From IMG/VR virus record IMGVR_UViG_3300033494_000001: DNA of 64,000 nt. The stretch is one strand, 5' to 3'. The notes beneath the pieces are model-generated. The model did not search any database and had not been told where the DNA came from. It was given only the letters and a program-made list of their open reading frames with translations. The stretch's first letter is position 1. Each line of letters begins with the position of its first letter. This document shows positions 22,701-61,253 of this stretch, piece after piece. A program made the translations under genes and the position numbers. This DNA comes from a virus (Duplodnaviria; Heunggongvirae; Uroviricota; Caudoviricetes).

Positions 22701-25700
22701 CTTAGGACTAATTAAAAAAGTTGAGTATGATTTAGTAAATAAAAAAGAAGTTGTTTCTAATTTTTCTCAACAAGAATTAAATAGTAAAAAAGGTGATATT
22801 ACAACGAAAGATGATATGAAAAGAATAGTATCAAATTTCTTTAAATCATATAATTTTAATCCTATGAATGCTGAAATGGTTATTTCGCATTTAAACACTC
22901 AAATTCTTGAATTAAATAAAAAGAAATTTGATAAAATTGCTGAATTACAAAATCTTCCGATACTTTCTGATGAACAAACTGCAGAATTACAAGAACTAGA
23001 AAATTCTCTTATTAATTTTAAAATTGACGATTTCTCAAATATAAATAGCATTAAAGTTATTTTTGATGGATTTGAAATGAAAATTAATACGGAATTTACA
23101 AATAGTAATATTACACGAAAAGAATATGATTCTTTCAAAAAAATTCAACAAAATAAAGATTTTTATGTAAGAGATTTTAACTCGGTCTTAAAAGAATTTG
23201 GTAAAGATTCATGAAAAGATTTAGATAGATTAGAACTAAATGATTTTTTAAGTAAATTAACTGAGTTAGGATTTTTAACTGAAAGTTTAAGAGAACTAAA
23301 TATAGTTTCTCCTAATTCTGAAATGGCTATTGAAAAAGCAATCGTGCAATTACAATCTGAAACGTTAACGCCAGAAGAATTTATACAAATACAAGATTCA
23401 TTAGAAGAGTTTATGACTTTTACTTCAAATTTAATTAATAAAAGTTTTAATACTTTAAATAATTCAGATTTAATTAATCTTGATAAAAAAATTACTGAAA
23501 TTGAAAAAGAACGTGATGCTGAAATTAATGAGAAAAAGCCCGATATTTTAAAAATTCATAATTATGCTTTAGATTTATTAGTTAAAGCTTTAGAATCCGG
23601 TACGGCTGATAAAGAAGTTTTTTATGAAGCTGAAGAATTAGTTAATACTGAAATTATAAAGGTTATATCTAAAATATTTCCAAATACAAAAAGTTTATCA
23701 TATACCAGTTTTATCCAAACAATGGAAGAAATGGTAGGATTTTCTGAAATGATAAATGAAATAATTGATTTGGAATTAAATAATGGTATTGAAGATATTT
23801 ATTTATCATCAGACTCTTTAGAACATATAATTACTATGGAAGAAGAAGCCTACAAAGCAGATGCAATGTATAAAGGGCTCTTTCCAAATCAGGATTTTTT
23901 AAATGTTATTAAGAATAACTTTGATTTAAAATTAAATTTAGAGCAATTTAATGGAGCATTATTAGACTTACTTAATTTAGTTAAATTAGAGAAAAAAAAT
24001 ATTGATAAAATAAATAAATTCTTTGAATTAGTTAAAAAAGGTTTAAATTTAAAATCAAATAGTCTTTATGATTTTATTAGAAATTTTGAACTAACTTTGG
24101 ACTCAAATCCAGAAAGTAAAATTAATAAAATCTTTGAATTATTAAAGCGTGAAGAGACAAATTTAAAAGCATCATCAAATGTAACTAATTTTACATCTGA
24201 TAATATTAGAGAACAAGATTTAAATCAGGCTGTTAATCATTTAGAAATGATGAAAGCAGTTATCTATGCAATGTCTACAACAACAGTTGATTTTGGAGAT
24301 CCTTATGGATATATTCAAAGTAGAATTAATTATGCAAAGAAATATAATCAAGAGGATGACGTTATAAATTTAAAAACTATAACTTCTGATGTTGCAACAT
24401 TAATGATTAAAGATTTAGATCTTCTAATAACTAAAATTAATTTTTTAAAAGATCTTGCATCATTCAATGCAGGAAAAATGTTTAATGAACAAGAAATCAT
24501 TAGAATAAAAGTTAATGAAATATTATTAGCTAATTGGAAACAATGATTAGTTAAGATGAATCCTTCATTTTTACCCCTTGATAAATTAAATCAAATTATA
24601 AATTCATCTAATTCAAATGAAAAGAAAATTTTAGATATTGAGACAGCAATTTTTGAACATAATAAAGGTAAGGAAGCTGAAGCTTTAGAAGAATTTTTAA
24701 AACATTTAACAAATGTTAATCCTGATAACTTCTCACAAATTGATAAAGATTTAAAAGAAATTAAATCATGAGAATTAGCACTTTATGCTGCAACTACTTT
24801 AAGTTCTAAAGCATCTGATTTTCAGGCTAGGAATTATAAATCAATAGCAGGAACTTTTGCAAAAGCTCCTTTCTTTACTCAAGAGTTTGTCTCTCGAATA
24901 ATTAAAGCAAGTACAGCTAATCCTACATTATTTGCTAATATCTTTAAAACTAAGCAAAATGCGTCTAAATTTGATTGTTCTTTTATCACAATTTTATTAG
25001 GTGGTTCTGGTACTGGAAAAACATCAGCTACATTAGGTTTAGCATTGGATAATTTTAAACAAACTAACGATATATCTAATGTTTGAATTTCTGCTCCGGA
25101 TGATACTCAAGTAAATAATTTAGAAAAAGCTATTAAAGAATCTACGGGAAATGAAAAGCTTGCTTTAGTAAAAGGAAATAAATTTGAAATTTTTGAAAAG
25201 TTAGGACTTACTAAATTAATTTCAGAAATTAATAAAGAGATTACAGCTATTAATGATAATAAGATTGAGAAAAAATATATTAAACTTGATGATGGAAGTA
25301 TTTTATTAGGAGAACAAATTACTAATAAAAAATGATTAGAATCAATTCCAGAAGAAATTTTAAAAAATCTTCCAAATTTATTATTAATTGATGAGGTTAC
25401 ACACTTTTCAGCTTTTGAAATGTATTTATTAAATGCGATTTCTGAATATTCCTATAATAATGATTCATTGAATTTTATGAAAATTATAGGAGCAGGTGAT
25501 ACTACCCAATTAGGTTATTTAGCTAAAATTGGAGATCAATATGTTCAATATAATATAAATACATATAATGCAATATTTACTCCAAGACTATGATTAAGTG
25601 TAAGAAGTTCTAATAATCAGAAAAGACTAAATGATGATAAATATAAAAGAATAAATCGTGAAGTAGAAAGTATTTATGATAAGGAAAATGATAATAGAAT

Positions 25701-28692
25701 TCCTGATTATGATAAGGCTAAACTTGATGCTCTTACTTATTTAAATAACACAAAGCGAGAAAATTTATTAGCATATCATCAAAAATCAAATATTATTACT
25801 GGTGATAAAATAATGACGTCTTTAGATAAAGATACTGTTGCTGTAATAGCTGCAAAACTTAAAGAAGATTCTACTAAAACACTTGGAATATTAACTTCCA
25901 ATGGTAAACTTCCTGAAGATTGAAATAAATTATTTACTGAAACAGGAATAATTACTCCATCTGATATGTCTAAAGTAAAGTTTTTTACTCCAGAAAATAT
26001 TCAAGGAAGTGAAGTAGATTATTTTATTTTTGATGCATCGTTAATAAAACCTTACGACAAACTTAGAGACAATTTAAAAGCTTTTTATACTTATATATCC
26101 CGTTCTAAAGTTGCTTCAATTATTGTTGATAATGAAGAGTTACTGAAAAAATGACATATTGAAAATGGACCAATGGATGCATATTCAGTGCCATTTGAAT
26201 TTTTAACTAAATCAGTAATTGACACAGCTAAAAAACAAAAAATAGAAGATATTGTTAAATTATTAGGAGAAAATCCAACTCCATCTTCTGATGATAATTT
26301 TAAATGAAAAATAGGCATTACTAAAAAAGAAGAACTTGGTGAAGAAGTTGTTATTGGTGGACGATATGTAACACCTGACCCAACTTATGATAAAGGAACA
26401 GTTTATAAAAATTCCACGGAAGAAAATAAATTAGAAAACGATGCTTTAAAAGATGGATTTAAAATAATGGCTCATAGCTTTTATAATAATCCAGGAGCTG
26501 AATTATCTGATGATAAATCTTCTTTAATTGTTAATCCTGGTGATACTCCATTTGATTTAAATGTAAGTAAATCATTAGCTGGTGATGAAGTAAAAGAAGT
26601 TGTAAATGGTTGAGGAAAATTAAAAAATCATCTTTTGCATAAAAATGTTGAATATATTCTTCCAAATGAATTTGATGAATTTATAAAATATGCTTTTCCT
26701 AATACATCTTCACTTGAGAATATTGAAGTTGAACGAGTAATCACTGTTTCTACTTATAAAGAAACTATTAATAATACTCATAGTAAAATTGGATTTGATA
26801 AAACAAAAACTTTAAAAAATGGAGATTTATTTATTAATATTTCTGCTAAATTAACTTATGGAAATAAAATACATTATATTACCTTAGCTAGTTTTGCAAC
26901 TCTTGAAGAAATAGCCAAAAAAGCTAAAGAATATAATGTTGATATTAAAGAGGTTGAAAAACGATGGATAGAATTAGAAAGCCAATTAGAAAAGTCTGAT
27001 AATAATTTTATTGAACTTAAAATTGAAGATCCGAATAGCATAAGTTTTATAACAGGAACTCGATTAGAAAAGTTACCTGAAACTGCATCACCTCATACAT
27101 TAGCTTCTTTAAAAGAAAAATTTCCTGGATTACATGTAAGCAATATCAAATTTTATCCAAATGATTACAATGATTTTAAAAATTTACTAAGTAAATATAC
27201 TTTTGGGCCAGAACGTTCTGAAGAAACTATGAGTCGAATGTTTTATGGATATACAGAAGAGGATAAAAAAGGAAAGAAAACTACATATTCAGGTCTAAAA
27301 AATAAACCATATATTATTGTTTCATTTAAAGATGATTTAGATGGAGGTTCTGAAAATATTATTCATGCAAAATTAATTCCGATAACCTCTAATAAACGCA
27401 GTATTACTACTTTAACTAAAGAGGTAGACAAAATTTTAGACGAAAGAGCTAATAAAATTAGTGTTGCTTCAAAGGAAGGTAAAAAAGGAAGTCAAGTATT
27501 TGACAACGATTTAAATGCAAAAGCAGAAATTCTTTTAAATAGATCGGATATTTTAGATACTTTAATCTTTTGAGAAACTAAAGACTCAGGAGAGGCAGAA
27601 GGAGGTTCTTTATTAGATTTATTTAATAAAAAAATAGAATTTAGTTTAGAAAATCAAGTATCAGGTAATACCACATCGGTATTTGAAGTGTTTAGTAGAT
27701 TTAAAACTGATAAAGGCTTAGATTCAGAATTTAGTCGTGTTATAACAGAAGTTAAAAAATCTGTTAAAAATCATACTAAAGATGGTAAACTTGATTTTAT
27801 AAATGCAAAGAAAGAATTACTTGCAAATATAAAGGGTATTAAAGGATGGCATTGAACATTTTTTAATTTATTTGGGTATGAAAAAATCATTGATGAAGCT
27901 GCTACAAATGAATTGGCACAAATGGTTGCAAAGAATCTTTCTACTGATGAATTGCTTGAAAAATTTAATGCTTCTGAAGGTCGAAATGAAATGATTAGAA
28001 TTATTGAAAAATTATTAAATCATATTAAATCTAAAAAATTCTATTATTCTATTCCAATTAAACCTGCGGCAGTTGTTGGAGGTCCAGTTCAAGCAAATTC
28101 TTTTATTAGTGGAGAAAATGGTTGAAATGAAGACAATTTTGGAGATAAGTTTTTTATTGGAATTACTCCTGAAAGTGGGAGACTTTTATTTGATTTACAA
28201 GAATTTTTAAAATCAAATATTATTCAACTTATTAAAAATACTCCAGGTCCAGTAGTTAAAACAACTCCAACTGAAGAAACTGAAGAAACTGAAGTAGAAG
28301 AAGTTATAGTTCCTGAAGAAGTTGTAGTTTCCACTATAGATGAAGATATTCCAATCATTGATATATCTACTGAAGAAATTATTAATAACTTTATGTTAAG
28401 TAATTTTAAAAACTCTTCTGATGTAATAAAAACAGCTATAACTAATTTATTACATTTAAAAAAGGATTTAGTTCAAGATATTTTTGCAGATTCATTGATT
28501 TTATTAGAATCTGAAAGTTTTATAAAATCAGATGAAAAGAATAAATTAAAAGCCATTATTAATAGTTTTGGATTTACTATTGAAAACAATGTAATTACTC
28601 GTGATAATATACAACAAGTTACAGGAATTACTGAAGCTAAACAGTTAAAATCTATTAGAAATGATATTCAAGAATTACTAAAAAAATGTTAA
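19777..28692 (+). CDS. Giant virion protein with SF1 (RecD/UvrD-like) helicase/P-loop domain, 2971 aa, TGA=Trp
   Basis: One frame through about 22 TGA to TAA 28690-28692. Walker A GGSGTGKT (25000-25023), Ia VWISAP, Walker B LLIDE (25381-25395), III GAGDTTQL, V TPENIQGSE, VI YTYISRSK. Confidence 0.75.
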
Positions 28693-28707
28693 TAAATACA
28701 AACTACA

Positions 28708-31700
28708 ATGAGTAAATGTAATATAGATTACATCAGTCAAATAATAAATGCTATTGACGACTATTTTTCCGAAAACAAAGACGGAAATTTAGAGAATTTA
28801 GAATTGTATGTGAAAGAAGAAGTCCCCCGATTAGAGGGGGACTTTTCTCTTGATACATACTTTGTAAATTCACAAGAATTTAAAAATCAGTTTAATACAG
28901 TTCTTAAATCCTATGGATTAGTATTATCTAGTTTTGTAAAAGATTTAGATTCAAAAGAAGTACATACAAAAAGTAATATTACTCAGAATTTTTCTTCTGG
29001 AAATATAGCAAGTCTATTTCATACTTTACCATTAGTACGATCAAATTTTGAAAGAATATCTACTGAAAAAATCCTTAATTCTATTTTTATTGGAAGTAAA
29101 GATGATATAAACTTTGTTCAAAATAATAGTGAAATAACAAATAATATTTCAAAATTAAAATCTGAGTTATTTGAAGATATTCAGAAATTTTTAATTAAAA
29201 ATAATGTATTAGTTGGAGAAGTTAAACCTTTGTATAATAGTCACTATGATGTTGTAGATTATGCTTATTATCAAAGAGTTATGGGCCTATTAGATGCGTA
29301 TTTTTTCTCAGGCAAGATATTTAAATTGATTAAGACTTACTCGAATAAACGAGGTATTCCTAATTTATCTTTAAATACAATTAGTAATGAAGAAATTTTT
29401 GATGCTTATAATGCCGGGATATTACTGTCTAATTTTGACACAGTATTAGCGGAACAATTTTCCGGAATTATTAATATCAACTATAATTTATTTAATAATT
29501 TAAGAAGTAGTATAGATAAAGAAGATAAATATACTTTAAAAATTCAAGGATTAAAAACTGAATATTGGCAAAACGATAGTCATGAAGATGAAGGTTCTGA
29601 AAATTCAGAAAGTAAATTAGTTAAATTGTTAGTTTCAACTATTCCTTATTTAAATAAAGAGGGAAAAGATGTTGGAATACAAATGGAAATGAAAGATTTT
29701 TATCTATTTGCAGCTATGATAAGTGATTTTGAAACTATATATGGCGTACATTTAAAACATGATAAATCTTTAAAGTTTAGATATTTAAATGAAAATCCAA
29801 AGGAAGTTCTTTTATGATATTTAGATGAAATTGAAAAAGCAATTCAACATAAGCCAAATGCAATAGGTCCTCTTGAAAATGTATTTCAAAAGAATTTTGA
29901 ATTTGCATTATCTTTAAAAAAGTATATTAATTCTGATAAATTAAATATTTTAGAAAAAGAGAAAAATTCAAAGGAATCATTAATTACAATGTTTGCACAA
30001 ATTATTAATAATAACTTTGGTGCTTCTTACTCACGATATGATTTTACAGGAGAATATACTATTAATCAAATGTATAGTCAAAACTTTAATAATATTGCTG
30101 TACAAAATACAACATTTAACTATTTATCAAAATTAGTTAAATCAAGTAGATTTGAAGAAAAAATTTATAAAAAAGAATTATCGGATATATTAAATGCTTT
30201 TAATGAAAATGATTTAAGTAAAATTAATATCAAAGATAAAGTAAATATTGTTAATTATATAAAATCAAAATCTGGAATTAAAATTTCATATTTAGGATTT
30301 GACAAATTAATTCAAGTTTTAAAACCAACAAGTAAAAAAGAATTTGAGAATTGATTAATTAGCTTTACTGATAAATTAGGTAAAGATCATAGTATTATTC
30401 AAGCACTAGATGATGAGACAACTAAAAATATCTCAGGAGATGCATCTATTACGAAATATATGCCAAATATATTAGATGATGCAGTTTATAAAACTGTAAC
30501 TGATGCATATTTATTAAATTATATCATGAAACCAGTAATGAATATTACTACTTATGATAATAAAAAACTTCCCACTTTTAAAGTTGCAACACTAACTCAA
30601 AAAGATTCAGAATTATTTGAATTACAAAGAAATTTTGAATTAGATAATGCTAAGAATACTTCTTTTAGAAGTCTTTTAACAAAACAATACTCATTAGAGA
30701 AAAACACTTCGCAAAATAATTTATTTCCATGTGTAATTCTTGGAACTGGTACTAAATTAGAATTAACAAATGAAGATGGAGGTAAAAGTGCAACTAAATT
30801 TAATGTTTCTGAAAACTTTACATCGGATTTTCAATTTGATTTCTTACAGAATATTTTAGACAATAATAGATTTTCTATAATGTTAGGAAACTATTCTGAT
30901 AAAAATACTATTCTTACAAAGATTATTAATGGATTAATTAAATTAGATGGAAATACGCCATTAATTCAAATGCCTGTTACAAAAATATTAAAATATGTAC
31001 AAGATCAAGGTCAAACATATTACAAAGATACTTTATTTAAAGTATTTGACGATTATGAAAAATTGTTAGGTATAAAATTGTCTATGAAAACGGTACCTGA
31101 AGAGAATATTAAAAAAATTAATGAAGCACTTAATAAAATTAATGTGCGTAGTTTATCTCAAAAAGCTTCTCAATTAGGAATTAATTTAACCGAAGAACTT
31201 CATTATTCTAAATACTTTATAAAAGACGAAACAACTGGTAAATTTAAACAAATCTATGGATTAAATCAATTACTTGTAGATAACTTTAGGATATTTAATA
31301 ATCCTAAATTATTTGGGGAATTTGTTAAATTGCAGGAAGAAAACATGATTAATAAGTTTAAAGAATTTAATAAGAATGTTAATGGAGGGAAAGAAATTAC
31401 TTTTGCGGGCAGTCCAAAGTTTGAAGAAATAATTAAGAAATTAGGAATTTCTAAAGAAGAATTTACAAAAAAAGGTACTGAAACTAATTATCGAGATTTA
31501 TTAGGAGCTAATGGAATTAATCCACTTTTAAAAAAATGGATGTGATTAAACGCTTTAATGAGAAATGAATATATGTTTATTTCTGCAAAAGGTGAATATA
31601 TGCATCCTCATAAATTAAAAGAAAATCTATTATATAGAGGTGATTCAAAGGAAGTAAATTGGGTCGATTATGAAAAAGAAATGAGTGGTCGTATGATTAG

Positions 31701-34700
31701 TATGGCTAAGCGTAATGTTTTATATACTGCTACAATTGAAGTTCCTGTAAGAAAATCAGCAATGGGTATTCCCGAGAATGTAAATATGGCTGCAATTGAT
31801 GATCATCAAGATATGCTGTATAATTTATCAGGAGATACTCATAAACAAGACGTACATGATGGTTCTACTTTTATTCCTTATATTTATAACTTAATGTTAG
31901 ATAATTCATTTCCTGCCAAAGGATATGAAGGAACTAAAAAACAGTTTGGATCATTAATTACAAAACATGGAGTTGTTGTTAAAAAAGATGCTGAAAGTGA
32001 AATTAATAATGCAAATATATTAAATTCTAGACGTTCAAATATTAATTTTTATAATAAACAAAAACAAGTTTTAGGAAGTATACTCATAAAGGATTTAAAA
32101 TTTTCTTTTGAACAATCATTAGATGATTTTTATTATAATCATTTAGGAGATTTATTTAAAATTAATAAATTAACTATAAAGAATAATTCTTATGAAATGA
32201 TTGTTTCTAAAAAAGTTAACAATCAATGATTATTAGAACCTAATATTATTAGGGGAAATTTTGAAACACTCTTCGATTTGTGAAAACTATTTGGAGCACA
32301 ACATTCTACAAATGAACATGGAGATTTTAATGAAGGTTCAAATGATTTATTATATAAACTTATAACTACTAAAGATAACAGTGGAGCCTATTCTTTAAAA
32401 GATAAAATGATTCATATTATTTCTAATCTTTCTGCATTAAAAGCTGGAGGAACTAATGTAAATAGTAAAGATTCATGAACCAATGATAAGAATTTAGCTT
32501 ATTTTACATTTGAAAATAGAATGATGGGTCCACAGTTAGATGCAACCCATGAAGCAAATGAGTCTCAAATTAAGGAGGTTACTCAGGTAATTTCGGCATT
32601 AGCACAAAATGCATCTACATCTTATTTAGCTTTAGAAGCATATCAAAACATTGCAAATGTAATTGAAAACGCAATGCGTCCATATCTAAAATACTTAGCA
32701 AATTCTGAAAATATAAATAATTCCGATTTGTACAAGTATCTTTCTGATAAGTTTGTGAAAACAATTTCTAATTCTAAAGGAGATACAATTGCTAAGATAT
32801 TAGTAGAATCATTTAAAGATGATGTAAATATTCCATTTAGTAATCAAAATTTCTTTGTCGCTTTTGTACGTGATGTAATTACTCGAATGAATAATGAATT
32901 TATAACTCGTTACTATTCAGGTACTGGAGCCGTACTTATTCCTTCACATGGAATTATTCAATTATATGATATTCCTCAAGCTGATGGAACAACAAGAATT
33001 GTTACACAAGGAGATTTAGCTAAAGAAGCACTTAATAACTATGATAAAACTTTAGGATTAACAACAAATGATGATATTATTACTAATTATATTAGTAATT
33101 TATTACAACCTTTACCTACTACTTGAGATAAAATTCAATTAGGAGATACTATTCAATTAGAAATGACTCCGGAATTACAAGCAGAAATTGAAGTTGAGCA
33201 AGAAAAATTAGGAGAAGCATGAGATTATATGACTGCAGAACAAAGTAAGGACATGATGAATTCAATTGTAGATCGTGTAATGATTAAAACATTATTTAAT
33301 CCTGGATTATATTATAAATATAAAGGAACTAAAACTAGTGAACCAATAACTAAAATTATAAATAAACCAAGAGATTTAAAACCTTCTGAAATTACATATG
33401 TAGTTAATGGAATTCAAAAAAATGTATTTGACTTTGATTCTGTACGTTTAAGATATAAATTAAATGAAATTATTGATGATTTAAAAAATAGAAAAGTAAT
33501 TGATCAAACATCTACAGATTATATTATTTTATCTAATTTCTTTAAAGATTTTACAGGATTTGATTTATTTATTAGTTTAACTACTAAATTAGAAGAAACA
33601 GCTAAATTATTAAACACTTTATTAAATAAATGGACTCAAAGAAACTTAGAGTTATTAGAAACTAATAGAGTAATGAATCCTGTTGATATTACAACCAAAT
33701 TTAATAATAAAGTAGGTTTATTTAAAACTGATAATTTCAATGCAATATTTTCTGATGTGCAACAATTATATGATGATTCTAATAGTTCATTAATTACAAA
33801 TTATAAATTTAATGCAGCTGAATTAATTTTAGGAGATATTTATCAATCTAAATTTAATCGTAACTTTGAGGATTCAATGTATGAAATTAAACAGCAAGGT
33901 TCTGCATATTTTGAGAAATTATTAGAAAAAGATTTTCATGATGATAGTACAGTTGCTGATATTAAATTATATTTAAACAATTATGATTCTCCAATATATG
34001 TTAAATACACTGATAATCTTCCTGGAAATGATTATAGTTTAAATATTACTCTAGAACATCCAATGGAAGAGGATGGAGTTAATCAACGTTTTGTTAGAAG
34101 AAATCAAAAAGGAGAGATTCTATATACAATCCCTGATACTAAAAATGTAAGTATAAGGATGGAAAATGGAAAAGAAGTTATTTATATTAAAGCAGTTGCA
34201 TCATTTAAATTAGGAAAAGAAACTCATACTAATAAAGTTAAAGATTTTGATCAAAATTTAAAAGATTTAATTAAATCATTTAAAGGAAATATTAGAAGTT
34301 TTATTCCTTTAATGAATAACAAATTTGATTTGTTTGAAGAAGTAGAGGATACAGAAACAGCTGCAAAAATAGCAGAAAGAAAAACTGAAAAAGTAGCTGC
34401 CCCATCATTTAAATCTAGACGAATTAGTTTTAATAGTTTAACTTTACAGGAGTTTTCAAAGTTTTCTGGTTATTCTATTGGAGATAAATCTATAAAGGAT
34501 AAATGATTTTTGTTAAATAAAAATAGTATTATTTCTCAATTAGGTAAAAAAATGTATGCCTCTTGAGAAAAATCTCATGAATTTGTAGCTGCTCGTATTC
34601 CATCACAATCTATGCAATCGTTTATGGAAATGAAAAATGTAGCATACCTTAAAACGAAATCAAATGATGCTTATGTATCTATCTGACAAATTTGATTACA

Positions 34701-37584
34701 AGGTTCTGACTTTGATATTGATAAAGCATATATTTTAGGAAGTAGTTTCTCAGGTAATGGACAATTTAATACCTGAGGATCTATTGATAATTATTCATCT
34801 ATTGAACAATTACATGAGTTAGAAAAACTACCTTTACCAAATGCTACAATTGTAGAATTAGTTGAAGGAGGGCTAGATTTAACAGAGGATTTTATTAAAT
34901 TTTATGCTAATCCTTCATTAGCATTTAATGAATTTTCAGCAGAACAATTAAAAGTTTTGAATACAATTTTGCGAAAAATTAATAATGTAAATGTTAAACA
35001 ATTATCAGAAAAAAATCATCCTCCTATTACTACAGGAATTTCAATTAATGGCAATGAAGAGTTATTAAAAGGATTTGTTGTTATATTAAACAATTTTAAT
35101 AAAAATAAAAAACATTTATATAATAATGAATCATTAAAAAATCTTACAGCGTCCACAATTAAACAAGTTATTTCATCACCAAGTAATTATTTATTAGCAA
35201 ATACACCAATTAATATTGATGATTGGCACCAAGCTGCTAAAGAAGCTTTAAGTAAAAAGACTAAACCTCCAACGATTTTATCTATGTATGATATGTTTAG
35301 TATGTATAAACAACAACGAGATGCTGCAGTTGGTAAAGATGATGTAGGTATTGCAGCAAATGGATTAAAAGCATTTTTTGCATTAAGTACATATTATAAT
35401 AGTTATTTTAATAACTTCTTTGAAAATAAAGCTGATGCTTTACGACAGAGTAATAAAACATTTTCAAAACAATTCAATTTTATTAATAACGGTGTAGTAA
35501 CACCTTATAAACTTGGAATGATTGCGGATGTGAATATTCAACAAAAACAAATTACATCTTTACAAAAATCTATTGGAGATTTTGAATTAAGAAGAACTAA
35601 TGCTGCCTTAGCTTTATCTGGTTTTACTAGTGCTGCTACCGATAATGCAAAAGAGTTACTTATGGCTAAAATTAATGCAAATGTTGAATTAGCATCTATG
35701 CATATTTATTTGATGATTCTTGGATTTACTCCTACACAAGTTGCAAATATTATGACTAATGATGTTATGGAAGATGTTATTGATGCATTGGAAGTAAATG
35801 CTTTTTTTAATCCTAAAAAACCAGTAGTAGCTACTATTTTTACTAAATTGATTAAAGAATACGGTGATGAAAATCCTGAAAAGGTCCAAAATGCTAAAAC
35901 ATTAAAAGAAATTTTTCAAGGGGCACAAGAAGTTAAAGTATTAGCTAAATTTTTATCTGTTAACCAAAAAACATCAGCAAATATTCAAGAAATTAACAAA
36001 TATTTATCTAACTTTGAAACAGCGGTTTATGCAAGAGAAAATCATGTATTTTCAAATAACGTTGCTGATTTAAATTTTTGAATGAATAATAAGGATTCAA
36101 AAGATTTAGTTAAAGTAGCAGAAGCTAATACTAAATTAGATAAATTAATTGGATTAATTTTTAAATATAATACTTCTTTAGATGCAAGTCTTGATGTAGC
36201 TTATGTAAAAAAGACTTTATTAAAAGCAGGCCAGTTAAATATTATTGGAGGAAATTTTGATTTTCAAATCTATTTTAAACCTGAAAATGTTCTGTATAGA
36301 GAAGCTACTAAAGAGTATTATAATTTAATAAAAAGTACTTTTAATATATTTGATGTAATAGATGATTTGCCTCATTTTAGAGAAATGATTAATGGATTAG
36401 CATTAACACATGAGATTTTATTAAAATCATCTGTTAAATATAATACAGCGTTTTCGTTAATTAAAACTACAATTCGTGAAAATTCTCATCGAATAGTATC
36501 TAATTCTTCAAATATTGTAAATCAATTTGGCAATCCATCATTTTATCCAAAAATTACTGATAATATTATTTCAAAAGGATTAGCAGGAATTGATATTAGA
36601 TTAATTAGTGAATGATTAAAAACTGATGAACTGAAAAAGTATTCATTTAATGTTACTGAATTATTACGAAAAGTAAATAGTATGAACTTTGATGCTGGGT
36701 TAACTAAAATAAATAATTTTAGAGTATATACATCTGATAACGCTCGAAATGCCAAGTATATAAATGATAATTCAATATTAGTTAATGAAACTGATACAGA
36801 AAATACTATTATTACATTAGATACTAATTTTGGAATTGCAAACTTTAAGCGATTAATGGAAAGTATTTTACTTCCAATGTTACAAACTAAATCTAATATA
36901 TTATTAGATTCGTTAAAAGTTCAAACTAATATTAGAAATATTTTAGGAATTAAAACTCAAGGTATTACATCAACATTTCCTTTAAGTGCTATTAATAATG
37001 CTGTAACTAAAGACAAAGCACAGAAATTAATAAAAGCTTTTAATGAATTAGATATTTCTCATGATACAAATACATTAGTAAAAAATACACAAAATAATTT
37101 AGTAAAATGAAGAGATTTATTTTATATCTATAATCTAACATTAAATAATGAGCGTTATGGTGCATTACGTTTAACTCCATTATTTGAGGATTATATTAAA
37201 GAAGAAGATTCTTTAGGTTATGATTATGTAATGTTTTCTTCTAAAATTGATAGTGGAGAATTAAATTTATATGATTTGGAAAAAGAATTATCTCGCGATC
37301 CAGAGTACTTACTTGCTCAACGAAATGAAGATAAATTAAAAATATTAGAACTTAGAAAAAAAATAAAAACAGAATTAGAAAATGATTTACTTTTTTATTC
37401 TTTACATAAACAAGGTTCCTTAGCAATCAAAGGTTTAGGAAGTGAGTTAAATTCTAGTAATGGAGATTTCGTAATTGTTACCTCTATGACAGAAACCCCG
37501 GAAGTTAAAAAAGGATGAGCAGAATTACATGAAGTAATTCAATTGATTAAAAGTAAAGGATTTATAATTAAATTTGAATGTTAA
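28708..37584 (+). CDS. Virion-packaged two-barrel DNA-dependent RNA polymerase (crAss-like, phi14:2 gp66-type), 2958 aa, TGA=Trp
   Basis: One frame through 17 TGA to TAA 37582-37584. Motifs KRN, DVHDG, GPQL, RIP (34594-34602), GSDFDIDK (catalytic DFDID 34708-34722), GKDDVGIAA, ATDNAK. Confidence 0.88.
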
Positions 37585-37587
37585 ATT

Positions 37588-40500
37588 ATGGCAAAATGTA
37601 AATATTTGTTAAAATTACCTAGTGGAGATGTCATAGAACTCTCCACTAGTTTTAATAATCTTGATGGACAAAATCCAAAAATAGATGAGCTTTTCAATAG
37701 CTATAATGCAGAAGAAAACGTTGAGAAAAAAGATAAAATATTAGCCAAATTGGCAGATTTAATTACTGAAGAAACCTCTTTTAAAATACATCAAACAGTT
37801 CTTAAAAATATAATTAAAAAAAGTTCTGAAATTGATAATCTATATCAAACTGTTAATAAATTAATAATAGAATCGGGCACGTATGCAAATATTGAACAAG
37901 CTATTAAAAATTATATTTGAGAGGGAACAAAGAAAGGCGAAGTAAATGAGAAGGTTAAAAGTTTAAAAGCAAAGTTATTAAAGAAAAGAGATTTAAATTA
38001 TTTTAAAGGCTTAGGTGTTGTCGGAGTTTTAGGAACAACAACATTAAAAGAAGAAAAAGATAGAATTAAATCTAAAAATTTAGAAAATTTACAAAATTAT
38101 TTTAATACAGAAATTACAGAAAATCTTCAATTATTATTATCTACGTTAAATGTAAAACATTTTAAAAATAATGATTCGCATTTATTATATTCAGTAAATG
38201 ATTCATTTATAGGAAAAGCTTGAAGTACTGATGATGTTGTTATTTATGAAACAGATGATGATTTATCTTTATTTTTAGGATTATTTAAAAGAGAAGCTAC
38301 TAAAGTAAATATTGAAAGTTTAGTAAGTATTTTAAAAGAAGATAAGACTTTTGATATAAATACATTTGATATTCAAACTTTTTTTCGTGGCACAATTGTA
38401 GAAAATAAAATTATTCCATCTACGTTTGAAAAAATGTTGACTAAAGCTACAGATGCAAAAACTGTATCTCAAATTAATCAGATTTTAACATTAGTAGCTA
38501 AAACAATTAATCCAGATACAGTAGGACTTATTAAGGCTATAAAATCATTATTTTGACAACTACATCCTAATTCATATGGAAAAGATAATTTATTTAAACA
38601 ATTACAAGATATTCAGTTTGTAGAAAATGAATTACAAGTAGAAAAAGAATTTAAGGAAAGACAACTTTCTTTCTTTGAATTAGAAACTACTAATAAAAAT
38701 ATGTATTTTGCTCCATCTGAAACAATTTTCGATAATTTATATGAAAATGCTCTTGAAAATATTATTGTAAATAAAGATATTGTAAAATTTCCGGAAGGTT
38801 CAGAAGGAACATATGGTTTAGTTACAGGTATATATAAACGTCCCAATAATCAAGTTGCAATTTATGGAGTTATTAAAAATTCATTTGGAGAAATTAAATA
38901 TGTTAACAACACATTTAAAGCTGGGGAACTTACTTTTCGTAAGAGAGAAGAGCCAATTGCAGAATATAGAATAGGAGAATCAGGACAATCAGTTTTAAAA
39001 TTAGAAGGAGCTCATATTAAATTAGATACTCCTTTAAGTCATAAAATTATAAAACCTTTTTTAAGTAAAGGTGATACTGTTGGAAATGATTTACTTTTAG
39101 GTATTTATCCTGGTCAATTAACCGTGGAAAAAACATCTGGAAAAGTAACAAAATCTGAACATATATATTATTCTAAAATAAGATCATTCACATCATATAA
39201 ATTACTTGAATTAATTAAAGCCGAAGAAAGATCAAAAACTGATAATTATAAATCTTTTGCTGAAGTTAATAATAGTAATGATTTAACTGCTGGAGATTTA
39301 TTTTTATATCAAGGAAAAACACATAAATTCTATAAAAGTATTTTATTTGTTGATGCAAATAATGTATATTCTTATGTAGAAGATGTCAAAAAAAATCATT
39401 ATATAATTAAAGCTTTTCCAAAAGAAGGCTTACAAGGTATTAGAAATAGTATTCGACATTTAACAGATACTGATATTAGACAAATAAAAAAAGAATCAGA
39501 AAATTTAGGACGTTCTGCTGCAACAATGTCATCATTTCAAGATTCAACATTAGCACAAGAAGGAGACTTTTTTACATTTACAGATAATGGAAAGAAACGA
39601 TTTGGTGAAGTTTTATCCGATAAAAAAATTCTAACATATGATGAAAATCTAAGTGATAGAGTTATTAAATCAATGGATTATATTAAAGAAAATAAATCAG
39701 ATTTACAATTCTTTACAAATCGAAATATTACTTCAAACTATACTTTATTTACAACAAGAGCTAATAGTTGAAAAGTAGAATTTAAAGAAGCCATTGAAGA
39801 TTCTAAATGAGAAGTAGAAGTACGTTATGTTATTCCAAAGACTTTATCAGAAGAAGCTAGAGCTTCAGCTTCTATATTACCAGGAAATTATCTAAATATT
39901 GGACAATATAAAGATATTAATCATATAAATAGTGATGATTTAGATTTTACAAAAGAATTATTAAAAGTTTTAAATCAAAAATCTAATTCAAAGATCTTTG
40001 TTAGAAGAGAAGCTTTACAAGGTCAAGAATCTAATTTATATGAACGTAATTTAACATCTTTAGTAGTAATTCCTGGATTTGCTAAATTAGATTTTCAAAC
40101 AAAATCAGATTTAAATATTATTCAACCTGGAACTTATTTTGCACTACAACATAAAACTAATAAAGATTGAATTGATAGAAACATTTATCGAATTATAAGT
40201 GTAGATGGAGATATTGTTAAAGCACATCTTAATAAATTCTCGCCTGAAGGTAAAATAATTACACATGAAATAACGTTATCCGCAGAGGAATTATTGAAAG
40301 AAAGAATAGCAAAATTATATTTACAAGTAGGTAATACAAAAATAAAACCAGCTTTTAAAGAAGCCAATAAATTAGTTGAAAATAAAGTAGAAAATCGAAC
40401 TAAAACAAATAAAGCTATTAATTTATTAATTGATTCATTTAAGCAATATACTAAAGACTTAAACATTCCAATTAAATTAATTTCGCATTCATCTATATTT

Positions 40501-41040
40501 ACGGAAGGTCAACATGCTGCTATTTCGTCCATAGATGAAAATGGAGAACAAAATTTATCAATTTTAATTAGTGATAAAATTGGAACAACGGAAGATGTAA
40601 TTCATGAGTTTTTACATGTATTTTTAATCCCATTACGCTATAAACATCCTGAAATTTATAATGATTTTATTAAATCAGTTTTACAAGATTCAACACTAAA
40701 TCTTACTGATATAGATAGTATCAATGTTACTGAAGCTGAAGAAATATTTGTTAAATTTGTATCTGCAAAAATTGCTAATAAAGAAGATTTTATTAAAAAC
40801 TTTGAGAATCTTCAAACTTTTGTAAATGGATTAAAAAGTATTATAACTGATGTAAATCCATTATATGAAATAGATAATACTGAAAATCCAGTAGAATTAT
40901 TAAATACTCCTTTAATGGATTTATTTGATATACCAAAAGGAGATTCTAGTCATGCTTTATATAACTTGAGTCTAATTGTAACAGAACCAGCTATGAGAAC
41001 TTGATTAAATGAAAATAACATAACTTTAAATTGTTCATAA
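37588..41040 (+). CDS. Large virion protein with C-terminal zincin-like (HExxH) domain, 1150 aa, TGA=Trp
   Basis: One frame through 7 TGA to TAA 41038-41040. VIHEFLH at 40597-40617 with a downstream EAEEIF helix. Confidence 0.7.
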
Positions 41041-41041
41041 A

Positions 41042-44000
41042 ATGACAAATTGCTATTATTACAAAGATGGAGAAAAGATAAACGACATACAAACTTTAAT
41101 TACTAAATTTTTTGAAGCCAACTATCAATTAAAAAATGATAAAATTTATAGTAAAGAAGAGATTCAAAAAAGTACAATTAATAAGATTTTAAATGTAGTT
41201 AAAGTTTCAGATTATACTGCCTCTGACAATGAAATCGTAACAGAGTTTATTACAACTCCACATCCAGGTTTATATAATTCTTTAGGAATTGAAACAAAAG
41301 AAAAAGGAATTTTAGCTCCAGAAATTATTGAAAAAAATAGAGTTTACTATTTTATAAAAGAAAACTTAGACCGAGTTCAAAATATTTCTCCAACAGAAAA
41401 CATATCCGGATTAAAATATGATGAAAAATTACTAGAATACATTTCAACTTTTGATGAATTAAAAAATATTCCTTTAAGTAGATTAATAACTCTTTTAAAT
41501 GAATATTATAATATTCGAGAAATCGAAGAAAAGACAAAGGATTTTGGTACATTTTTACATAATATTATTTCTTTAAAAATACAAGATAAAGAATATAGTA
41601 AACTTATTGATCGATTTTTATCTGATCCAGCAAACTCAGAATTACTTGGTAACTATTCTACAAATGATTGAACTAAAAAGATTAATGAAATAGTAACAAA
41701 TGTTATTTCTCAGGTTCAAGGACAAGGGTATCTTATTAGTGAAATTATGATAATGACTGATGGAGATAAATTTAAAACACCAATTGATATTTGAGGTGAG
41801 GATTCAAAGATTTCAAGTGGAAAAAGAGGATTAAAAGGAAAACTTGACTTAGTAGCTGTTGATACATCAGGAAATGCACATATATTTGAAATTAAAATTT
41901 CTAAAACTAAATATCAGAAATGAGATACAGCTAAAAAGTTAACTTTAGATTGACAATTAGCTTTATATAGACAATTATTAGGATTACATATTAATATAGA
42001 TCAAACTCGATTATATGTAATTCCTATACATTTAGAAACTCTTGGAAATCCAGGTAGTATAAGTGTTGAAAAGATTGTAGATAGAGGAACTGAAAATAAT
42101 AGTGGTTTAAATTCAACTGGAGCAATAACTCAAAAAGCAAATAAACTCATTCCTAGAAAAGTAATTGCAGATTATAATCCAGATAGAGAATATAAATTAA
42201 AAGGGCAATTATCTGATTTACTTGGAAATCAATATAAAATAGAAACAGGACTTGAAGATTTTGATGTAGAAAAAATTGTAGAAAATGCAAGAAAACGTTA
42301 TGAAAAAGACAAGAAATGGATTAAATGAAATAACTTTGAGGGAATTTCAGGATTAAAAAAAGGTTATATTGAATCGGATACAGAAGAAGAGTTTAGAAAA
42401 AAAATTAAATTATATGTTGACCATGTAAAAACTCAAACTAATCGAAATGTCTCTATTTTAAAGGATGCTATTATATCAGCTATTAAAAGTAAAATTCCAG
42501 TTAAAACAAATTCATATGATTTACAAAAGGATTTAACTATCAATCATTTATTAACCGAATATTTAAATGATGATTGAGATGTAGTAACTGAAATTCCTGA
42601 AGCAATTGCTTTTGGTTTAGTTGTTTTAAAAAATAAATTAAATGGAAACATTAATGTTATTAGTTTATCTATAAATCAATTTGATGCATCAAGTCATATT
42701 GATGGAAAAACATATGGAGATTTAGAATTTTTAAAAACTTTTTTATTTTTAAATGAATTTAAAGATATATTAATTCCTACATCAGATGTTTCTGTTAAAA
42801 ATGATAAAATAGCACAAATTATAATTTATAATCCATTAAATATGCAAACTTATCCTAAAAATTGTTTTAGTAAGTTTGTTGAATTTAAAGAACAAATGTC
42901 TTTAAAAGAATCATTAAGAAAAGAATTAAAATTAAGTGAAAAAAATGTAGCTTCAATTGAGGATATTGCTTTATATAACTTAACTACTAATTTAAGAAAT
43001 TTTAATGGAACAAATAAAGAAGATGTTGAAAGAGTTTTTAAAAATATTAGTGATACAAATTTAGATTTATTAGATGTAGAAGCTTTAATTGAAGTTCAAA
43101 GAGAGTTGTTTAATTCCCCTGGATTTGTTGGATATCGAGATAAAACAATGAAAGGAGTAGTTGATTTCAATGATCCAAAAGAAGTACTAATTGCACTTTT
43201 ACAAGTAGTTATTGCTTCAAAAGGTCAAATGGAATTTGCTGATGATTATCAACGAATGTCTAAATATAGTTTAGGTTTTTCTGATTTCAAAAGTTTAATT
43301 GCCGTATTATTTAGTGATCATCAGGAAAAATATAATAAAGAACGTCAACGTATTCAAGGAATTACTCAGGGATTGTTATGAACTACTCCAGATTGAGTAG
43401 CATCAAAAGATTTACATAGTATTAATAAAATTATGGCTATGACAAATCAACATATTGGAGAAAAAATGTTGAAGGCATCAGAACAAATTGCTTGAAATAC
43501 TAAAAAATTCTATAAAGAAATTAATTTCAGTGGATTTTCTCGTAATATTATTGGTGAAACTCAAACAAAGCATGAAAATTTATGATTACATGATATAAAT
43601 CAAAAAGTATCTAAAGAATTTAGAACTAAAAATCCTTATGTGTTAGATAATCTTAATGCATTAGAGGATCATGAGCGAGAATACCTACAAAATTTATTGT
43701 TAATTATAAATGCACATAAATTACAAATTCCAGATTCAGAAATTGCAAAGTTAGATAGTAAAAATATAAAATCATTAATGACTAATAATAAAATAAAAGA
43801 TGCTTTAGAAAGTGAAGAATATTTTAGAATGCCATTAATTAGAAGAGAAGAAGTTACTAGATTTGGTGATATCTTTACTACTCCAGGAAAACTTTGAAAA
43901 GAAAAATTATCATCATATTTTCATGAATTTAATGATTATATTGATAATCGTGAATTAACTAAAGATGATTTGGCAGCTTTGGAGGCTCAAAATTTAGGAT

Positions 44001-45768: not shown

Positions 45769-46479
45769 TTAGATTTGTTGAACTTCTTTTATTAGATTTT
45801 GTATTATTGTACCATAGTTATCTCCAGTGGCATATCCACTTTTTCCAATAATTTGAGCAGCTTGATATGGATCTGAAATTCCCACGATACTTTTAAATTT
45901 ATTACTAGTTGATAATAAATTAACATAATCTGCAAAACCTTCTTCTATTGAATTATACATTCTAAATGGTTCCATTCTATCTTCTAAACCATTTTTTCCT
46001 TTCTCTTTAGTTTTAAGGATTTGTTTAGGTCCTTTTCAGGAAGCAAATGCTTTTATACCTCCAACATTATTACCAGGAGTATGTTCACCTCATCCGGTTT
46101 CTAAAGCAATTTGAGCTAATAAATAGTCTTTAGGAATATTTAGTTTTTTAGATGCTTCTTCTGCCATTGGAGAATATATTTGAAGAAATTCTTTTTTATT
46201 TTTAGGCTTTATAGAAGTATTTTTAGACTTAACAGAAGCAGTTAATGTTTCCGGAGGATTTTCATCTAATAACTCCCTAATATTATATTTCTTTTCAGAT
46301 TTAATTTCTTGAGGAGCAGGAGTTGCAGAAGTTGCAGGAGATAAACTTATTCCTAATATACTGCTAATATCTTTATCTAAGTAATCATTATTACTATTAA
46401 AGTATTCTTGCTGAATTTCTTCTTTAGAAGGATTAGGATTTAATGTTATAGGTTTAAATGATGCGAATGTATTTTCCAT
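45769..46479 (-). CDS. FlgJ-like glucosaminidase/muramidase (peptidoglycan hydrolase), 236 aa, TGA=Trp
   Basis: Track ORFs 46090..46479 and 45769..45975 join through TGA at 46090-46092 and 46036-46038: LAQIALETG-W-GEHTPGNNVGGIKAFAS-W-KG...FRMYNSIEEGFADYVNLL...GYATGDNY, the glucosaminidase/FlgJ signature. Confidence 0.88.
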
Positions 46480-46908: not shown

Positions 46909-47334
46909 TTATTCATTATTTAGAATGTATTTTTGATACATGTTCAAAATAGCGGCTTTTCCAACCGGTTTGACACGCTTGGAATCTCGCTCGATACATT
47001 CTTCGACTGGAACATCAAAGTTTATTACATCAATTATTATTCCCCTTGCGGAGGCAATTTGGCTCCAAAAAGTATAGTGTTTTTTCGCAAAATTCGTATC
47101 ATCAATAACAATTGATTTTCCAGTGTCAAGGATAGTAATTCCCATTTTGCGTTGAATATCTAATACTGCATCTTCAAATTTGTTATTAAATACTGGACTT
47201 CCTAATAAATCCCTAATATCGTCTTTATTAATCCTAATATAAGTTGGATTTCTAAAACAAAATTCTTTTGCCCAAGTTGATTTACCACTAGCGGGCAAAC
47301 CTTTCAATAATATAATTTTTTGCTTATTATTCAT
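46909..47334 (-). CDS. Polynucleotide kinase (T4 PNK kinase-domain/AAA_33 type), 141 aa
   Basis: ILLKGLPASGKSTWA P-loop, RINKDDIR, IVIDDTN, ECIERDSKR. Start taken at MNNKQK (47334), overlapping the upstream gene's end. Confidence 0.8.
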   Translation of the reverse strand: MNNKQKIILLKGLPASGKSTWAKEFCFRNPTYIRINKDDIRDLLGSPVFNNKFEDAVLDIQRKMGITILDTGKSIVIDDTNFAKKHYTFWSQIASARGIIIDVINFDVPVEECIERDSKRVKPVGKAAILNMYQKYILNNE

Positions 47335-47515
47335 TTTTGTATAATCGTTTTTCTTCACAAGAATCACAAAGTTCTCCTGGAATTTTCTTCTCTCCTTTAG
47401 CAGCCAACCACTCATCCTCAGTAAAAACATTTGAATATTTAATAATTGTACTACAATGTGAGCACAACATTACTGGATTTCCTCCATTAAATTTAAATTT
47501 CGCTTTGCACTTCAT
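47327..47515 (-). CDS. Small Zn-finger-like hypothetical protein, 62 aa
   Basis: CSHC and CDSC pairs, TAATG-coupled. Confidence 0.6.
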   Translation of the reverse strand: MKCKAKFKFNGGNPVMLCSHCSTIIKYSNVFTEDEWLAAKGEKKIPGELCDSCEEKRLYKNE

Positions 47516-47805
47516 TATAAAGTAAGTTTTAGATTTAGAATAGATTCAAAGACATTCATGCCTCCTTCAAACGGATTTCCTGATTCCCATTCTTCATAAA
47601 TATAAGTTTCATCTTCTTCAGTTGATTCAAGTTGTTTAGCTAATTCTTCACATTTTTCTAAAATGTATTGATTATTTATAATTCGATTTTCAGGAATAAA
47701 ATAAGCACTAGGCATCCAAACATTTAATATAGCTTCATCGTTAAACCATGATTCTTCCATTAAGTCTTGAACTTCTGGCCATTCAACTAATATGTAACTA
47801 TTCAT
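47515..47805 (-). CDS. Hypothetical protein, 96 aa
   Basis: Intact ORF overlapping neighbours. Confidence 0.6.
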   Translation of the reverse strand: MNSYILVEWPEVQDLMEESWFNDEAILNVWMPSAYFIPENRIINNQYILEKCEELAKQLESTEEDETYIYEEWESGNPFEGGMNVFESILNLKLTL

Positions 47806-48103
47806 TGCTATTCTTTTTGTTCATGTGATAATTATAAAACATTGCATTACATTGAATATGACCCATATGAGAAACTCCTGATTCACTATCATAGATTTCT
47901 CCATCAAATAATGCAGCTAAATGTCTTTGCATTGATTCTAGAATTTCCATTGTATCCATTGGTTTTTGCCAATTAAATGGAGCATATTTTAGACAGCCAT
48001 ATTCAAGAACTCGAATCATTGGAACTAGACTTTCATAATGAACTAAAGACCATTTAGGTTTTCCTTCATTATATCTATCAGCTTTTAATCCTGATTCTAA
48101 CAT
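47798..48103 (-). CDS. dATP/dGTP diphosphohydrolase-like (DUF5664-type) protein
   Basis: KADRYNEGKPKWSL...VLEYGCLKY..FNWQK...SMQRHL...DSESGVSHMGHIQCNAMF matches the family pattern. Confidence 0.7.
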   Translation of the reverse strand: MLESGLKADRYNEGKPKWSLVHYESLVPMIRVLEYGCLKYAPFNWQKPMDTMEILESMQRHLAALFDGEIYDSESGVSHMGHIQCNAMFYNYHMNKKNSNE

Positions 48104-48118
48104 AGCTTGAAATCGTTT

Positions 48119-49246
48119 TTATTCATTGATATTATTTTTTGAATTTTCAATTATATATCTATAAGGAATAAATCCTCTAAAATTATTACACCATCCATGC
48201 AAATTTCCATTATTTGGATTTTCTCCAATTATTTCATTCTCAAACATAGGTTTTTTAATAATAGGATACTTTTCATAATTAACAATACCCCATTGGTCTT
48301 CAGTTGTAGGATATTCTCCTTTAACAAATGAAAAATATTGTAATTCAGACATACATTGTGCAGCATGTTCAAATGGCGACATATGTTTATTTGTAAATAA
48401 ATCATCATGTAATTTAATATCTTTTTGATAATTAATTTCACCATCAAAAGTTAAATACGATAATCGGGCAGCACGAGCAGTAGCAATTTTAATTCTACTC
48501 CACAATTCTTTATTATACCAATCATAATCTGATGTTTTAAATCCAATTGCTTGTGCAATACTTTCTGAATTCATTTTATCACCAAAAGGAATATGCCATT
48601 CTCCTGGTTCTAGTAATTGAGGCCGAGATTCATTATGAGCATCCCACATTGCTTCCGCTAATGCTTGAATATGTATTTCTGCTCCTGATTTACTAGCTAA
48701 TAACCAATCAATATCAGATAAAGAATTTGAAAAATGAGTTTCTTTTGTAACATCAATTTTACTTTTAAATATTCTATCTCCAAATAAAGGAAATTGATAT
48801 TTCGGTGAGCGAAGGTCAAAGAAATTATAATATTCAGTTGCAGTAACTAAACAAGTATACCACATAAATGGCTCAACTAATCGGTTACAAAGTTGTTTTG
48901 TAACATGAGTATTTATGCTCATTTGTTCTGCCATAAGTACGGCATTATCACGAGCTATTAACCATTCTTGCTTCGCTTGCATAGCAAAACCTGGATCTAA
49001 GTATTTAACACCTTGCATTCCAGGATGATCTTCTTGCCATGCAATTGGAATGAAAGGATCTTCTTTAATCATTTTAATCATTCGGTCAAATGGTATAGCT
49101 CGTGAGCTTGCTGCATTTCTGCTAAACATCCTATGCGTCATAACTTCTGCATGGATCATTCTTGGATAAGTAAGAATGTACGAGGTAATTCGATTCCCTC
49201 GTACATCTATACTATCCGCAACTATTTTTGCACTAATCTTCGTCAT
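48119..49246 (-). CDS. thyX: Flavin-dependent thymidylate synthase (phage ThyX/Thy1 type)
   Basis: AKIVADS...RITSYILTYPRMIHAEVMTHRMFSRNAASSRAIP, KQLCNRLVEPF, ARAARLSY, HMSPFEH. Confidence 0.8.
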   Translation of the reverse strand: MTKISAKIVADSIDVRGNRITSYILTYPRMIHAEVMTHRMFSRNAASSRAIPFDRMIKMIKEDPFIPIAWQEDHPGMQGVKYLDPGFAMQAKQEWLIARDNAVLMAEQMSINTHVTKQLCNRLVEPFMWYTCLVTATEYYNFFDLRSPKYQFPLFGDRIFKSKIDVTKETHFSNSLSDIDWLLASKSGAEIHIQALAEAMWDAHNESRPQLLEPGEWHIPFGDKMNSESIAQAIGFKTSDYDWYNKELWSRIKIATARAARLSYLTFDGEINYQKDIKLHDDLFTNKHMSPFEHAAQCMSELQYFSFVKGEYPTTEDQWGIVNYEKYPIIKKPMFENEIIGENPNNGNLHGWCNNFRGFIPYRYIIENSKNNINE

Positions 49247-49685: not shown

Positions 49686-49706
49686 AATATAAATTATTAA
49701 TAGTTT

Positions 49707-51303: not shown

Positions 51304-51366
51304 AATTTTTTATATTCTTCGATTTCTAATAATTGACATAATTTAAGAAATAGTAAATATTCTTGT

Positions 51367-53309: not shown

Positions 53310-53321
53310 TGTTTCGTTATT

Positions 53322-54379: not shown

Positions 54380-54380
54380 A

Positions 54381-61252: not shown

Positions 61253-61253
61253 A

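Follow-up and report, generated by a model that had tools for sequence, protein, structure and literature searches.

Paired terminal cysteines at the junctions of giant cargo proteins in crAss-like phages and a predicted head-to-tail link

The locus described here, four consecutive giant genes on the plus strand of a 64,000-nucleotide stretch of viral DNA (IMG/VR record IMGVR_UViG_3300033494_000001; the whole stretch is called the window below), has its closest described counterparts in the RNA polymerase (RNAP)-associated cargo blocks gp47-gp50-gp49 of phage crAss001 and gp65-gp66-gp67 of phage phi14:2 (PMC10172136; bioRxiv 10.1101/2020.03.07.982082). Mass spectrometry has shown, for these two phages only, that the cargo proteins are present in virions (PMC10172136; bioRxiv 10.1101/2020.03.07.982082). 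crAss001 virions contain gp47, gp49, and gp50, partial unfolding is argued to be needed to pass constrictions under 50 Å, and the virion structure has several inter-subunit disulfides (PMC10172136). The phi14:2 genes carry, in chain order, the GenBank tags gp078-gp077-gp076, of which gp078 corresponds to either gp65 or gp67. As in these two blocks, the products of which occur in virions and are considered to leave the particle in a partly unfolded state, the giant genes of the window follow the muzzle gene and cargo genes, one encodes a two-barrel RNAP with a DFDxD motif, another encodes a zincin motif, and the same rule holds for terminal cysteine (Cys) residues. Unlike them, the window block has four members, in the order helicase-like protein, RNAP, zincin-like protein, and nuclease-like protein, and it reads TGA as tryptophan (Trp). 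The papers on crAss001 and phi14:2 mention neither terminal cysteines nor a link between the proteins (PMC10172136; bioRxiv 10.1101/2020.03.07.982082).

The three phi14:2 proteins are fused in some phages, as the phi14:2 polymerase paper points out (bioRxiv 10.1101/2020.03.07.982082). Fused polyproteins of this kind (p-crAssphage gp44 and gp45, crAss002 gp33, and Fpv1 gp33) contain the same modules joined by peptide bonds, whereas the members in the window are separate open reading frames (ORFs) ending in TAA, so any link between them would be post-translational and reversible.

In AB toxins an interchain disulfide is reduced after translocation. The likeness to the proteins studied here is one of function: disulfide-tethered chains, unfolded passage through a narrow channel, and release in the reducing cytosol. 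There is no homology, and the toxin consists of two chains from one precursor with a link that is not head to tail, unlike the chain considered here, which would comprise up to five separate gene products placed end to end inside the capsid. The podophage ejection proteins, gp14/15/16 of T7 and the virion RNAP gp50 of N4 with gp51 and gp52 (PMC13434306), are likewise carried inside the virion and leave through the tail, either before the DNA or together with it, the giant virion RNAP being thought to be unfolded or loosely folded. Here the difference is that no covalent link has been described between the ejection proteins; the N4 paper mentions neither a disulfide nor a cysteine (PMC13434306). 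The literature that we searched contained no description of a terminal-cysteine rule or of a head-to-tail link, in agreement with the preliminary description of the window, which was made from the sequence alone and knew of no such system.

Cysteine positions in the four chain proteins

The four ORFs of the chain encode 8633 amino acids in total but only 10 cysteines, and 6 of these are terminal residues at the three junctions between consecutive proteins. The probability that random placement would put at least 6 of 10 cysteines in the 24 target positions is ∼1e-13. The outer ends of the chain are bare: the first member lacks an N-terminal cysteine and the last lacks a C-terminal one. Among the 31 window ORFs of at least 100 residues, a cysteine within the first 6 residues occurs only in three chain proteins, and the only other C-terminal cysteines belong to three Cys-rich early proteins.

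All four genes lie on the plus strand. The first member (P0001; 19777-28692), a helicase-like protein of 2971 residues read with TGA as Trp, has Cys1734 and, as its final residue, Cys2971 (codon TGT, 28687-28689); a cysteine is present at position −1 to −5, counted back from the C terminus, in every ortholog seen. The second member (P0002; 28708-37584), a virion-type two-barrel RNAP of 2958 residues, has Cys4 (28717-28719), Cys675, and the final residue Cys2958 (37579-37581). Orthologs keep a cysteine at positions 3-6, and the C-terminal cysteine is an invariant column of alignment A2 (seven orthologs, 32-60% identity). The zincin-like third member (P0003; 37588-41040; 1150 residues) has no cysteines other than Cys4 (37597-37599) and the penultimate Cys1149 (41032-41034), both of which are invariant in 14 P0003-family sequences, namely the window protein and 13 homologs. 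The chain ends with a PD-(D/E)XK nuclease-like protein of 1554 residues (P0004; 41042-45706), in which Cys4 (codon TGC, 41051-41053), invariant in alignment A3 (24 sequences), is accompanied by Cys608 and Cys1201. The first three genes are in one reading frame, with spacers of TAA TAA plus four codons and of TAA plus one codon; the fourth gene is in the +1 frame relative to these.

A recount with TGA read as Trp was identical to the totals given in the preliminary description, and the first nucleotides that it listed for the six terminal codons (28687, 28717, 37579, 37597, 41032, and 41051) were all exact. The cysteine positions likewise bore out its statement that the first protein has no N-terminal and the last no C-terminal cysteine. 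Its domain labels (helicase, RNAP, zincin, and nuclease) were broadly right, as judged by the Walker A, DFDID, HEFLH, and PF12705 matches that follow.

The first member gave a weak AAA_19 match and contains a Walker A sequence, GGSGTGKT, at residue 1742 (25000-25023); its orthologs are present in the genomes L007 and L008. The second contains DFDID at residue 2001 (34708-34722), the catalytic motif of crAss-type virion RNAPs. BLAST (tblastn) comparison of this protein with the RNAPs of MT835470 and MT835492 gave E = 1e-42, and comparison with crAss001 gp50 gave E = 1.4e-5. The HEFLH zincin motif of the third member (residues 1006-1010; 40603-40617) is invariant in the 14 sequences, and no Pfam family matched this protein. 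The fourth matched the PD-(D/E)XK family PF12705 with E = 2.9e-7. None of the four proteins had a family in PHROGs. For P0003, tblastn against deposited phages gave no match and a single-protein scan of IMG/VR gave no relative; its IMG/VR relatives were recovered by an alignment-based scan instead. Motif content and synteny place the block in the Crassvirales RNAP cargo module, its sequence similarity to reference phages being marginal.

An AlphaFold2 (AF2) model of P0003 had a mean predicted local distance difference test score (pLDDT) of 75. In this model Cys4 lies immediately ahead of an N-terminal β-hairpin (strands 5-9 and 15-19), and the C-terminal cysteine lies on a disordered tail (residues 1147-1150). 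A complex prediction for the C-terminal 350 residues of the zincin-like protein (A1) and the N-terminal 350 of the nuclease-like protein (A3) scored 0.10 against a mark of 0.32 and was not used as evidence either for or against an interface.

Conservation, splits, and fusions across crAss-like genomes

The junction pairs were tabulated uniformly in 26 genomes, among them members of the Steigviridae, Intestiviridae, Suoliviridae, and Fipvunavirus, using the standard code, TGA as Trp, or TAG as glutamine (Gln); record BK010471 was among the genomes compared. A junction was scored as paired if a cysteine lay within the last 13 residues of the upstream protein and another within the first 9 residues of the downstream protein. 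Cysteines were present on both sides at 52 of 52 junctions. An N-terminal cysteine was found in none of 13 complete first members and a C-terminal cysteine in none of 21 last members. The number of members per chain varies from 2 to 5, and the outer-end rule holds throughout.

In the genomes read with the standard code, all 3 protein junctions of MT835470 are paired, IAS virus has two paired junctions, and the three virion proteins of phi14:2 contain, in 5398 residues, exactly four cysteines, all of them at the two junctions. In crAss001 the sole cysteine of gp47 is at −3, gp50 has Cys5 and a cysteine at −9, and the sole cysteine of gp49 is Cys5. p-crAssphage gp45 has a cysteine at −2 and gp44 has Cys3. 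The sole cysteine of crAss002 gp32 is at −2 and is matched by Cys3 of gp33 after start correction; in cr271_1 a cysteine at −2 is followed by a protein starting MSC. Flavobacterium phage Fpv1 encodes a 4401-residue protein with a single cysteine, at −2, and the next protein starts MAC. With TAG read as Gln, MT835492 has five members and four paired junctions, and the Suoliviridae cr109_1, cr52_1, and cr7_1 have one paired junction each. Five paired junctions were found in the metagenomic lineages L019 and L020, which read TGA as Trp. The annotated start of crAss002 gp33 (MVLDYS...; NC_055828, L013 17088-29825) is probably wrong, and an in-frame MSC at its residues 33-35 fits the conserved start of the orthologs.

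Closer to the window, all three junctions remain paired in the genomic contexts of relatives whose identity ranges from 46% to 23%. Fourteen P3 homologs were found at 33-46% identity. The 13 that are full-length all have Cys3/4 and a cysteine as last or penultimate residue, and these terminal residues are mostly the only cysteines in the protein. The fourteenth (P0008) keeps Cys4, its gene call being cut short at the C terminus. Both TGT and TGC are used for the junction cysteines, and the neighboring residues and spacers vary among relatives, indicating that selection acts on the amino acid.

A census of the last chain member was made by searching a library of 1.84 billion cluster representatives, which yielded 75 full-length representatives. 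A cysteine was present at positions 3-6 in 70 of the 75 and at the C terminus in none, with an overall cysteine frequency of 0.33%. The five exceptions were artifacts: runs of N hid the start in two, ATG had been called too far downstream in two, and a GTG start had been missed in one. Their true starts are MENC, MAC, MSTC, MAYC, and, for the GTG-started gene, MAKC, so that all 75 have the cysteine after correction; the upstream partner ends with a cysteine in all five corrected cases. The motif M-x(1-4)-C revealed mis-called starts in the metagenomic gene calls L022, L023, L024, and L025.

The pair is also found where a junction has been newly created. The first protein of MT835492 comes from a split pair of overlapping genes, for 1540 and 1555 residues, whose products align with the N-terminal and C-terminal portions of P1. 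The new termini have cysteines at −5 and at position 5, and unsplit orthologs are Cys-free there. The same split, with the same pair, occurs in 11 independent IMG/VR contigs at 87-93% identity. The split genes overlap by 19 nucleotides (L008:6650-6668; L026-L036); both new cysteine codons lie inside the overlap, where the upstream TGC and the downstream ATG share bases.

Conversely, p-crAssphage gp44 and crAss002 gp33 each consist of the RNAP fused with a gp49-like protein, and there is no cysteine near the fusion. From these sequence comparisons, gene fusion and the cysteine pair appear to be evolutionarily interchangeable. A short zincin domain (HEFIH) also seems to be fused to the N terminus of the last, nuclease-like protein at L024:8870-13996, without a cysteine at the fusion; the scaffold has a 100-N gap at this point.

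An interruption of ∼1 kb, with no cysteine at the break, is present in the RNAP genes of both L004 and L007, and these breaks were considered as a possible counter-example. The insertions (L004:6005-7061 and L007:17339-18400) lie at the same site, within the DFDID codons, in two distant phages, and encode a LAGLIDADG endonuclease. Exon 1 ends GSDF (GSDY in L007) and exon 2 starts DIDKAY, and joining them restores DFDID in both. A match to Rfam RF00028 was obtained in L007 only, at 23 bits (E = 0.0026), below the gathering threshold. Judged by these sequence features, the interruptions are group I introns. Splicing would yield a single polypeptide, and therefore no protein junction and no cysteine pair are expected at the break; the counter-example was rejected.

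Candidate links between the termini

Conservation, adherence to chain order, gain at the split, and absence at fusions together favor C-terminus-to-N-terminus pairing between successive members and exclude chance, a DNA motif, and purely intramolecular pairing. We consider it slightly more likely than not that the terminal cysteines provide a conserved protein-level coupling, most likely by disulfides, that threads the four proteins head to tail. A disulfide is the simplest chemistry for two lone thiols without conserved neighboring ligands. The bond between paired cysteines is a prediction, and we infer its chemistry, its timing, and its role in packaging and ejection. The presence of the cargo in crAss001 virions, the need for its unfolding, and the known inter-subunit disulfides of that virion make such a link plausible.

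In the coupling that we favor, a bond would form between the C-terminal cysteine of each member and the position 3-6 cysteine of its successor, either after entry of the proteins into the capsid or following lysis. The helicase-like protein, the RNAP, the zincin-like protein, and the nuclease-like protein would thereby be joined as one thread of ∼8,600 residues. As C-to-N links preserve the polarity of the chain, this thread would mimic the polyprotein that is made by fusion in relatives. It could fix a 1:1:1:1 stoichiometry, and partly unfolded members could follow one another through the narrow tail, each drawing the next into the channel. Reduction of the links in the host cytoplasm would release the members. 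We are more guarded about a general form of this proposal, to which we give slightly less than an even chance: that the chains are reversible pseudo-polyproteins, in which 2-5 products are concatenated at fixed stoichiometry into one thread that is unlinked in the cytoplasm and is interchangeable with gene fusion. Unlinking might then release, and possibly activate, the virion RNAP.

These comparisons support in part the linear chain proposed in the preliminary description. The comparative predictions held: as it had suggested checking, the positional bias of the cysteines persists in orthologs across the Crassvirales down to ∼23% identity and follows chain order, and the pair is re-created at a split and absent at fusions. 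The bond itself stands as a prediction.

Several points weigh against disulfide coupling. The reducing cytoplasm of bacteria does not normally allow disulfides to form, and strict gut anaerobes are common among the hosts; the cysteines would therefore need to be oxidized within the capsid or following release. The Pfam annotation of the other genes in the window includes no thioredoxin, Erv, or Dsb family. In the Intestiviridae a transmembrane-type cargo protein encoded upstream of the chain has a lone C-terminal cysteine and is followed by a Cys-free protein; the lone residue is at −2 in p-crAssphage gp47 (L011, 5588-8161) and at −8 in crAss002 gp30 (L013, 6393-8066), and some terminal cysteines thus fall outside the chain model. 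In L024 the upstream cysteine is 13 residues from the end of the protein. None of the five census candidates proved to be a true loss of the junction cysteine, so that they provide no case of co-loss that would speak for pairing. Finally, the two cysteines could just as well be joined through a metal ion.

This last arrangement, head-to-tail pairing through a shared Zn, Fe, or Cu ion held by the thiolates and perhaps by other ligands, accounts for the same comparative evidence as a disulfide does, and it avoids the oxidation problem, since reducing conditions in the cytoplasm do not prevent a metal bridge from forming. We nevertheless regard it as unlikely. Each terminus offers a single cysteine, with no conserved His, Asp, Glu, or second Cys alongside it (for example KFEC, KFKC, IKCK, and YKCE upstream and MAKC, MNC, and MGC downstream), and a site with two ligands would be weak.

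Equally unlikely, in our estimation, is that the terminal cysteines act singly, forming homodimers or tethering each protein to the capsid interior, the portal, or other cargo. The lone C-terminal cysteines of p-crAssphage gp47 and crAss002 gp30, which have no adjacent partner, would fit this arrangement, as would the other intermolecular disulfides of crAss001 virions; and since a fusion deletes both termini, absence of both cysteines there is expected equally on this account. Independent tethering leaves unexplained, however, why the outer ends are bare in chains of 2-5 members (0/13 first members, 0/21 last members, and 0/75 in the census) and why cysteines were gained simultaneously on both termini of the split protein.

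Somewhat less likely still is non-covalent docking of the termini, for example in a shared small β-sheet, with the cysteines serving as packing or redox-sensing residues. The flanks of the cysteines are strand-like (I-x-L-x-C upstream and C-x-Y-x-I downstream), and a strand follows directly after Cys4 in the AF2 model of P0003. Against docking, near-absolute conservation of cysteine would be unusual for a packing residue in proteins almost purged of cysteine, and both the neighbors and the offsets (−1 to −13 upstream and 3 to 9 downstream) vary.

Pairing of each protein's own N terminus with its own C terminus would suit the middle members P2 and P3, which carry a cysteine at both ends, but it is extremely improbable and is excluded because the proteins of two-member chains (p-crAssphage, Fpv1, and Suoliviridae) have one terminal cysteine each and thus no partner, as do the end members of longer chains. 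Just as improbable is a product of chance or of a nucleotide signal at the junctions, for example coupled translation or a start-stop motif: the genes in the window are closely packed and a single frame serves P1, P2, and P3, but random placement is disfavored by the ∼1e-13 figure above, the codons vary, spacers range from overlaps to 170 nucleotides, reading frames differ in relatives, and the crAss001 genes for gp47 and gp50 are on opposite strands with their cysteines still matching (−3 and 5), which excludes junction DNA or translational coupling as the cause.

Three further candidates were considered and rejected. Split inteins would have halves of ∼100 and ∼35 residues, a Hint fold, and a nucleophile at +1; only 0-12 residues follow the upstream cysteine and 2-8 precede the downstream one, and no Hint or intein Pfam family matched. 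A lipoprotein lipobox (L-x-x-C) follows a signal peptide of ∼15-25 residues, whereas the cysteine here is at position 3-6, right after the start methionine, with no hydrophobic leader. A polyprotein made by stop readthrough is unlikely, as the frame is not conserved in relatives, where overlaps and other frames occur; in the window P1, P2, and P3 are set apart by TAA TAA or TAA, and the frame of P4 is +1.

Genomic setting and biological meaning

The genetic code table 11 breaks the chain-gene region (19777-45706) into short ORFs, and reading TAG as Gln is no better. Reading TGA as Trp restores the four consecutive giant plus-strand ORFs. In-frame TGA codons are confined to the late plus-strand genes and the glucosaminidase gene at 45769-46479 (window 1-46479, compared with 46909-64000). 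Of nine further minus-strand genes that were translated, the eight beyond 46909 are read cleanly by the standard code, which gives two stops in the small ORF at 52502-53029. In crAss-like phages of the Zeta group TGA interrupts the RNAP and helicase genes (PMC12386605), which is consistent with the window.

Upstream of the chain, the plus-strand gene at 4247-8530 encodes the Crassvirus muzzle protein (PF25731 crAss_MUZ, E = 1.4e-23) and serves as a synteny anchor. Two giant, cargo-like proteins of 1635 and 637 residues, encoded on the same strand at 12949-19769 and lying outside the chain, contain no cysteine in 2272 residues; the 637-residue protein is homologous to the protein just ahead of the chain in MT835492. 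The entire cargo region of the window thus seems to be purged of cysteine except for the junction residues. Downstream of the chain, genes on the other strand encode a glucosaminidase, a kinase, ThyX, RNA and DNA ligases, and ribonucleotide reductase. The synteny of the late strand, with the muzzle gene and Cys-free giant ORFs followed by the four chain genes, matches that of the Crassvirales. Taken together, the region represents the late module for structural and cargo proteins in a large crAss-like phage with opal recoding.

The proteins of this block probably belong with the known cargo and ejection proteins of phages; the pairing of their terminal cysteines is order-wide and is undescribed in the literature searched. 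One practical outcome is an annotation rule: the motif M-x(1-4)-C indicates where these genes truly start.

Among the phages of the human gut, the Crassvirales are the most abundant. How the large virion RNAP and its partners are packaged, counted, and delivered through the tail is left as a question by the crAss001 structure paper (PMC10172136). If the coupling proposed here is correct, it would provide a concrete mechanism for the packaging and delivery of these proteins, for which crAss001 and phi14:2 are cultured models. It would also explain why fusions, splits, and rearrangements of these genes are so frequent and yet leave function intact, and it would exemplify a polyprotein substitute that can be reversed by redox chemistry.

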